The position numbers and the translations under genes were made by a program. DNA of 64,000 nt from Escherichia coli. Its GTDB lineage: Bacteria; Pseudomonadota; Gammaproteobacteria; Enterobacterales; Enterobacteriaceae. Position 1 is the first letter of the stretch; each line of letters starts with the position of its first letter. This document shows, piece by piece, positions 41,949 through 42,535 of this stretch. The stretch lies in the NCBI RefSeq assembly GCF_003334255.1, contig NZ_QOWU01000004.1; one strand, 5' to 3'. The notes under the pieces are model-generated. The model did not search any database. It was not told the DNA's origin and saw only the letters and a list, made by a program, of their open reading frames with translations.

Positions 41949-42476
41949 TTATTTGCCTTTTTTAATAACCTCAATGGTGCTTGCCACAACACCTTCCAGC
42001 GGTTGATCGATATCCACCACCAGTACATCGGTTTCGTCCGCACCCGGCTCCTGCAGCGTTTCAAACTGCGTCACCAACATTTGGGTTTTAAAGAAATGGC
42101 CTTTGCGCGCTTTCAGGCGGCTTTCAATCACATCAAAATCGCCTTTCAAATAGATGAAAGAGAGATTCGGATTACCTTCACGCAGCAAGTCGCGATAGTG
42201 TTTTTTCAATGCAGAACAGACGATCAGCGACACTTTATTAGTGCGCTGCATAGCAAACGCGGCGTCGTTCAGCGCCTGCAACCACGGTTTGCGATCGTCG
42301 TCATTCAGTGGTTCGCCAGACGCCATTTTTTCGATATTGCGCCGTGGATGGAGGAAATCGCCATCAAGAAACGCGGCATGAAGTTGATGCGCCACTTCAC
42401 TGGCGACCGCAGATTTGCCGCTGCCCGATACGCCCATCAAGACGTAAATGTGGTGATCATGGTTAGTCGTGCTCAA
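41949..42476 (-). CDS. gntK: Gluconokinase GntK (175 aa), TTG start
   Basis: ORF 41949..42497 begins at a non-ATG codon; recognised GntK N-terminus (M)STTNHDHHIYVLMGVSGSGKS starts at TTG 42476..42474. Confidence 0.88.
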   Translation of the reverse strand: MSTTNHDHHIYVLMGVSGSGKSAVASEVAHQLHAAFLDGDFLHPRRNIEKMASGEPLNDDDRKPWLQALNDAAFAMQRTNKVSLIVCSALKKHYRDLLREGNPNLSFIYLKGDFDVIESRLKARKGHFFKTQMLVTQFETLQEPGADETDVLVVDIDQPLEGVVASTIEVIKKGK

Positions 42477-42506
42477 AGTGGTGCCCCCACAATACAAGAA
42501 TTAAAA

Positions 42507-42535
42507 ATGTTACGGGTAACTGTTATCGGTAACAT
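42507..42535. promoter_or_regulatory. Tandem palindromic GntR operators upstream of gntKU
   Basis: atgttacgggtaac tgttatcggtaacat: two overlapping inverted repeats with GTTAC-N4-GTAAC core. Confidence 0.55.

Follow-up and report, generated by a model that had tools for sequence, protein, structure and literature searches.

The TTG start codon of gntK and the tandem GntR operators of the Escherichia coli gluconate loci: an assessment from sequence and cross-species comparison

The gntK region of the Escherichia coli DNA analysed here (a stretch of 64,000 nt, in the following called the window) very probably comprises the promoter, the operator and the 5' end of gntKU, behaving as already described for this species. 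Sequence comparison supports initiation of the gluconokinase gene at a TTG codon, and it likewise supports the overlapping palindromes that precede this codon as operators of the gluconate repressor GntR. For the GntI system, the TTG start codon, the operators in tandem, the CRP site and both operators of the distant gntT gene are already annotated or published, and GntR operator sequences are already in use in synthetic biology. What the comparative analysis has added is that the 29-bp tandem operator hardly varies among about 30 genera of enterobacteria and that the position of the gntK start is confirmed independently of annotation, while the only mildly new point is the family-wide retention of non-ATG starts by both gntK and gntU. 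The genes of the operon and of its repressor are arranged in the window as follows.

40605..41945, minus strand: gntU, low-affinity gluconate transporter with a GTG start (K-12 annotation, NF007781 equivalog)
41949..42476, minus strand: gntK CDS, gluconokinase, 528 nt, 175 aa including the initiator (RefSeq CDS mapping from K-12 and other strains)
42615..43610, minus strand: gntR, LacI-family gluconate repressor (NF011563 equivalog, Pfam)

The 801-nt junction that runs from the end of gntR through gntK to the start of gntU has been found at 96.8-100% identity in 5425 of 5426 complete E. coli genomes, and its genes are gntR, gntK and gntU in the annotation of every matching genome. The window is a segment of an E. 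coli chromosome that is K-12-like, other than that of MG1655. Its identity to K-12 MG1655 amounts to 99.98% across the first 48.3 kb and to 99.6% across the remainder, its yrhA is without the IS1E element of K-12 (777 bp including the target duplication, at about 48311), and its glpR carries one additional G (at about 25340) relative to MG1655, in which glpR is annotated as a pseudogene. The gnt region itself is the same locus as the gntRKU operon of E. coli K-12 (b3438-b3437-b4476): both have the CDS coordinates, the TTG start, the 3-nt gap between gntK and gntU and the CRP site in common, the 181 nt compared across promoter, operators and start are identical, and the number of differences inside the gnt region is zero. 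The operon of K-12 has reportedly been described by Tong et al. in 1996 and by Izu et al. in 1997. The gntK product matches the NCBIfam equivalog NF008583 with 373.6 bits (cutoff 265), covering residues 1-174, and TIGR01313 with 241.7 bits (cutoff 113.75). It carries the Walker A motif (GxxGxGKS) as GVSGSGKS at residues 14-21 and is identical at 175 of 175 residues to the chains of PDB 1KNQ, 1KO1, 1KO4, 1KO5, 1KO8 and 1KOF. By its equivalog match, and equally by its P-loop and its identity to the solved enzyme, the protein classifies as a gluconokinase of the GntK/IdnK type. GntU, in turn, matches the NF007781 equivalog far above the cutoff.

The elements that bear on the choice of the gntK start lie within 30 nt of one another.

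42474..42476, minus strand: gntK TTG initiation codon (annotated start; TTG or ATG at the aligned position)
42484..42488, minus strand: Shine-Dalgarno-like GGGGG, 7 nt 5' of the gntK TTG (direct reading of the sequence)
42495..42497, minus strand: alternative in-frame TTG at which the ORF listing begins, rejected as gntK start
42501..42503, minus strand: in-frame TAA closing the frame 5' of gntK, 27 nt (9 codons) from the start (sequence)

The original prediction had let the N-terminus of GntK begin at TTG 42476..42474 instead of an ATG, and this assignment holds on the curated K-12 and PGAP starts, on the Shine-Dalgarno sequence and on the alignment of 80 species. The minus strand reads TAA TTC TTG TAT TGT GGG GGC ACC ACT TTG AGC ACG ACT AAC CAT GAT and continues with CAC CAC ATT TAC GTC TTG ATG GGC, the codon directly before STTNHDHHIYVLMG being TTG 42476-42474. 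The curated RefSeq entry of K-12 MG1655 (NP_417894.2, 528 nt) starts gntK at this codon, and the PGAP-annotated strains do the same, the most divergent strain sampled included. As the frame is closed upstream by TAA 42503-42501 and the P-loop extends from residue 14, TTG 42497 and TTG 42476 are the only canonical starts that would give an intact kinase; the Walker-A strand starts at about residue 10. In the PDB, the entries for GntK of E. coli (1KNQ and a further five) have 175 residues and the N-terminus MSTTNHDHH, and since these chains are recombinant, they corroborate the TTG start rather than prove it. The NCBIfam gluconokinase equivalog profile starts at the same residue as the PDB chains and, being built from annotation, provides no independent proof. 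The N-terminus of the purified GntK enzyme has reportedly been sequenced by Izu et al. in 1996. A text search of the literature has returned nothing relevant on the gntK TTG start codon, and gntK (b3437) is absent from the INRI-seq and TRAINSPOTTER supplements.

Initiation at the other of the two codons, TTG 42497-42495, would produce a protein of 182 aa beginning with MYCGGTTLSTTN, in which the annotated TTG would encode an internal leucine. TTG 42497 is the earliest codon of start type once the in-frame stop has been passed, so that a mechanical ORF finder starts there, and an in-frame TTG at -21 has also been seen in several Escherichia and Citrobacter loci. However, it has no purine-rich tract on its 5' side; the GGGGG lies 3' of it and is well spaced for the annotated TTG. 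Further evidence comes from a cross-species set of 80 gntK loci from 80 enterobacterial species in about 30 genera, which allows a test independent of annotation. The codon aligned to the gntK start is TTG in 77 of the 80 species and ATG in three, namely Yokenella, Trabulsiella and Buttiauxella; in these three the ATG stands exactly at the position of the annotated TTG, and the switch between both codons represents at least two independent changes. From codon 2 to codon 12, the STTNHDHH peptide is kept through synonymous changes, a G-rich block (GGGGG, GGGAG, GGAGG or GAGGG) is placed at Shine-Dalgarno distance across the loci, and one G at -10 of the start is invariant. The upstream TTG, on the other hand, is missing from most genera, an upstream in-frame canonical start of any kind is lacking in 36 of the 80 loci, and the distance between operator and annotated start, which ranges from 16 to 85 nt, changes by amounts that are not multiples of 3. 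Taken together, the interchange of TTG and ATG, the variable 5' length and the conserved peptide form the pattern of a true start codon, which would exclude the upstream TTG as well as Met13.

We therefore regard initiation at TTG 42497 as very improbable. A start at Met13 (ATG 42440-42438), by which the STTNHDHHIYVL segment would become untranslated leader, is hardly credible at all: this codon is the sole in-frame ATG near the gntK 5' end and about 88% of the annotated genes of E. coli start with ATG, but it is without a preceding Shine-Dalgarno sequence, the conservation of the codon 2-12 peptide through synonymous changes in 80 species is the signature of translated sequence, and residues 9-13 fall inside the gluconokinase subfamily profile (TIGR01313 from residue 11, NF007336 from residue 10) and directly precede the GVSGSGKS P-loop, so that a protein truncated in this way would probably lack part of the fold. 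The annotated TTG 42476-42474 is the sole conserved codon of canonical start type that leaves the P-loop kinase intact, and UUG initiation at this codon is supported by the Shine-Dalgarno spacing, by the lack of an ATG or GTG option and by the cross-species signature.

The leader RNA of gntK has been found to be no more structured than its shuffles (z = +0.82), and leader structure as a regulator of UUG use was rejected on this value. In the Klebsiella/Raoultella group, the gntK leader from operator to TTG measures 72-85 nt, compared with 16-43 nt elsewhere (long-leader loci L026, L027, L030, L031, L034, L035, L041, L047, L048, L057 and L065), and the additional sequence shows no conservation outside the group.

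Upstream of the gntK start lie two overlapping operators.

42520..42535, minus strand: GntR operator O1, ATGTTACCGATAACAG (match to the 16-mer consensus; published operator)
42507..42522, minus strand: GntR operator O2, CAGTTACCCGTAACAT (match to the consensus; 3-bp overlap with O1)

Together they form a 29-bp unit that reads ATGTTACCGATAACAGTTACCCGTAACAT on the minus strand (42535-42507). A tandem of overlapping palindromes had been predicted about 30-60 bp upstream of gntK, and its strings and coordinates have proved right, as the plus strand contains ATGTTACGGGTAAC (42507-42520) and GTTATCGGTAACAT (42522-42535) at 31-59 nt 5' of the TTG. The motif GTTAC-N4-GTAAC proposed along with them had to be corrected in its spacing. 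The real palindrome is ATGTTAC-N2-GTAACAT, and the N2 16-mer recovers all four sites at gntK and gntT, whereas a search of the window with the N4 motif (at most 1 mismatch) yields 3 matches against 0.93 expected, none of which is a gnt site; the N4 form was consequently dropped for N2. Of the exact 10-mer core GTTACCCGTA, the window has 3 copies (11268-11277, 42511-42520 and 62245-62254), compared with 0.05 expected, and 0 of 100 shuffles reach this number.

The consensus published for GntR is the 16-mer ATGTTACCCGTAACAT (PMC10450161), to which O1 and O2 each have 2 mismatches, the distal gntT site 1 and the proximal gntT site 3. The central 2 bp are CG at O1; at O2 they are CC, as they are in the published consensus. 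A 16-mer identical to O1 has been shown to act as a gluconate-responsive operator of E. coli GntR in a heterologous system, and a 2-bp insertion at the operator centre abolished its function (PMC10450161). Furthermore, repression by GntR exceeds 5-fold at the promoters of gntK, gntT and idnK and is tightest at that of gntK (PMC13386637), and GntR has been reported to control gntK, gntU and gntT (PMC12195362). The matches to the published consensus and these papers support the gntK palindromes as GntR operators. That the gntK and gntT loci stand under one repressor, the GntR encoded here, had been proposed from the recurring core and is borne out by the equivalog score of GntR and by the same three papers. 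All 80 species of the set have the 29-bp tandem unit with at most 3 substitutions, variation being found chiefly at the central and the last base, and the leader immediately 3' of the unit is not conserved in the operator-anchored footprint. As O1 and O2 share 3 bp, the binding of two dimers at once is an assumption.

The third exact core of the window (62245-62254, minus strand) has no palindromic partner and lies antisense in a 127-aa ORF (62091-62474), which is K-12 panZ by its length and by its position after the -777-bp offset; this occurrence was judged to be due to chance. The same judgement applies to a 3-mismatch match at 48633-48648, as 1.8 matches are expected by chance in the window at up to 3 mismatches.

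GntR (42615-43610) reaches 776 bits against the NCBIfam equivalog NF011563 (cutoff 433), and Pfam assigns to it a LacI HTH (PF00356) and a Peripla_BP_1 domain. The winged helix of the GntR/FadR family (PF00392) is absent from E. coli GntR in the Pfam scan, and membership in that family, as suggested by the name, was rejected on finding LacI and periplasmic-binding domains only. The LacI HTH and the periplasmic-binding-protein fold are common to GntR and the LacI/GalR systems (LacI, PurR, GalR, CytR), and the GntR operator shows the corresponding traits, which are a 16-bp inverted repeat, a 2-bp centre and release by a sugar-acid inducer (PMC10450161). Unlike in the LacI/GalR systems, two operators are merged at gntK into one 29-bp quasi-palindrome.

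Given this family background, the palindromes could primarily be sites of the paralogue IdnR (GntH) or of another LacI-family protein instead of GntR. The paralogues GntR and IdnR do bind shared sites (PMC2395238), and the GntR of the window reaches 402 bits against the IdnR model, which is below the model cutoff of 500. However, it is E. coli GntR together with gluconate that acts on the O1 sequence in the heterologous system (PMC10450161), in vivo the gntK promoter depends strongly on GntR (PMC13386637), and the gntR gene adjoins the operator at the locus. Sharing of the sites by IdnR would add to the control by GntR and not replace it, and we give the assignment to IdnR or a further paralogue only a very slight chance.

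The predicted promoter of gntK and the CRP site lie at and upstream of these GntR operators.

42534..42562, minus strand: predicted gntK promoter, TTGCTT (42562-42557), 17-nt spacer, GACAAT (42539-42534) (conservation)
42587..42608, minus strand: CRP site AAATTTGAAGTAGCTCACACTT (listed in PMC2395238; cross-species conservation)

In the operator-anchored footprint (78 unique sequences), the hexamers TTGCTT and GACAAT are each conserved to at least about 90%. A consensus promoter scan upstream of gntK on the correct strand has returned nothing, the TTGCTT/GACAAT pair falling below its threshold. An alternative promoter could be formed by TTGTCC (42550-42545) and GATAAC (42527-42522), but TTGTCC, the -35 of this pair, is not conserved. 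With TTGCTT and GACAAT as the promoter, the -10 would abut O1, transcription would start inside O1, and the CRP site would be centred near -70. The CRP site of gntKU has been listed with 13.1 bits (PMC2395238). Table 2 of that work gives its position as -171, and the site in the window is only 111-132 nt away from the annotated TTG; the discrepancy possibly reflects another start annotation or reference point, NP_417894 being at version 2.

At gntT, the two GntR sites are well separated.

11266..11281, plus strand: distal GntR site ATGTTACCCGTATCAT, including the -10-like TATCAT
11407..11422, plus strand: proximal GntR site ACGTTACCCATAACAA, ending 20 nt 5' of ATG 11442

The core had been stated to occur twice upstream of gntT, which stands for the distal site, where it is exact (11266-11281), and has to be qualified for the proximal one, where 11407-11422 carries GTTACCCATA, one mismatch away from the exact core. 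A promoter scan at gntT identifies TTCTCA-18-TATCAT (11252-11281), the -10 hexamer of which is located within the distal site. In view of the 1.8 chance matches expected at up to 3 mismatches, the proximal site becomes convincing only via its conservation in other genera. Both sites are kept in Kosakonia, in Shimwellia and on a third enterobacterial contig, with identical or near-identical sequence and with the distal site at -176 to -182 and the proximal site at -34 to -36. Because the same positions are occupied in these three other Enterobacteriaceae, both gntT sites are best read as real.

At gntT, the window has one site over the -10-like hexamer and the second about 141 bp downstream, which agrees with the arrangement reported for this promoter. 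Porco et al. are said to have described in 1997 two GntR operators together with a CRP site at the gntT promoter of E. coli, and Peekhaus and Conway reportedly located, in 1998, one of these operators at the -10 region and the other near +120. The spacing at both loci differs considerably, with the gntT sites being 141 bp apart and the gntK sites overlapping by 3 bp. Outside Enterobacteriaceae, the gntT orthologue of Pantoea, Yersinia and Brenneria is preceded by an overlapping tandem pair with a 14-bp offset, like that of gntK, and not by two separate sites. This pair is situated about 125-215 nt upstream of gntT (loci L089, L090 and L091, respectively). In Yersinia and Brenneria, gntT is divergent from a gluconokinase-like gene, and one operator pair may thus serve both genes. 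By eye, a CRP-like TATGA-N6-TCTCA can be recognized in the window at 11209-11224, upstream of the promoter-like hexamers of gntT; it would be centred about 71 bp before the probable gntT transcription start.

From these elements, a working scheme of the operon can be proposed. GntR, encoded directly upstream, would bind to two 16-bp ATGTTAC-N2-GTAACAT repeats that overlap by 3 bp, and the resulting 29-bp unit, lying on the gntK promoter or immediately 3' of it, would block transcription until gluconate frees GntR, while catabolite control would come from the CRP site, located about 60 bp 5' of the operators. The gntK mRNA would have a short, unstructured leader and a UUG start 7 nt after a G-rich Shine-Dalgarno sequence, and gntU, with its GUG start 3 nt after the gntK stop, would probably be translationally coupled. 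The gntT gene, 31 kb away, would be subject to the same repressor through two sites, one covering its -10 region and the other about 140 bp downstream, and the latter, being placed just before the ribosome-binding site, may act as a roadblock or by looping. The exact transcription start, the simultaneous occupancy of O1 and O2, and the translational coupling are points of this scheme that we infer.

At the junction of both cistrons, the GTG start of gntU is positioned 3 nt 3' of the gntK TAA (window 41943-41951). Among the loci L004-L083, 77 species have an intact gntU ORF, and in these the gntU start is GTG in 59, TTG in 18 and ATG in 0, and gntK and gntU are joined by an overlap of -4 or -1 or by a 3-nt gap in 70 of the 77 loci. 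This pattern points to coupled translation and to ATG being avoided in the operon throughout the family. Annotated E. coli starts are about 88% ATG and about 12% non-ATG, the latter forming a routine minority, and in the first 48 kb of the window 35 of 37 annotated CDSs start with ATG, the sole exceptions being gntK (TTG) and gntU (GTG). Like gntK, other non-ATG genes of E. coli combine UUG with a Shine-Dalgarno sequence of the usual kind and spacing; gntKU differs from them in that both cistrons are non-ATG.

The conservation of the first base of the gntK TTG amounts to 0.96, compared with a mean of 0.67 at 4-fold sites, 1 of 48 of which is as high. When only transversions are compared, 12 of the 48 4-fold sites are as conserved as this base. 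Since the changes from T to A and from T to G are transversions, for which 12 of 48 sites equal it, selection on the gntK TTG is not supported, and the case for selection keeping this codon is weak. It is conceivable, though in our judgement rather unlikely, that weak non-ATG initiation has been selected family-wide in gntKU, by which both proteins would perhaps be capped and coupled, for instance to limit the flux into 6-phosphogluconate upon derepression of the operon. If the avoidance of ATG is selected, the operon would constitute a tidy example of the tuning of a catabolic operon at the level of translation.

An attenuator around early gntU has reportedly been discussed for gntKU. Within the first 20 codons of gntU, the minus strand contains a terminator-like hairpin, CAGCAGTAGGGTCTGTTTTACTGCTG followed by CTGTTTTTAG (41895-41920), which overlaps the codons for TAVGSVLLLLFLV and may thus be a by-product of the coding sequence.
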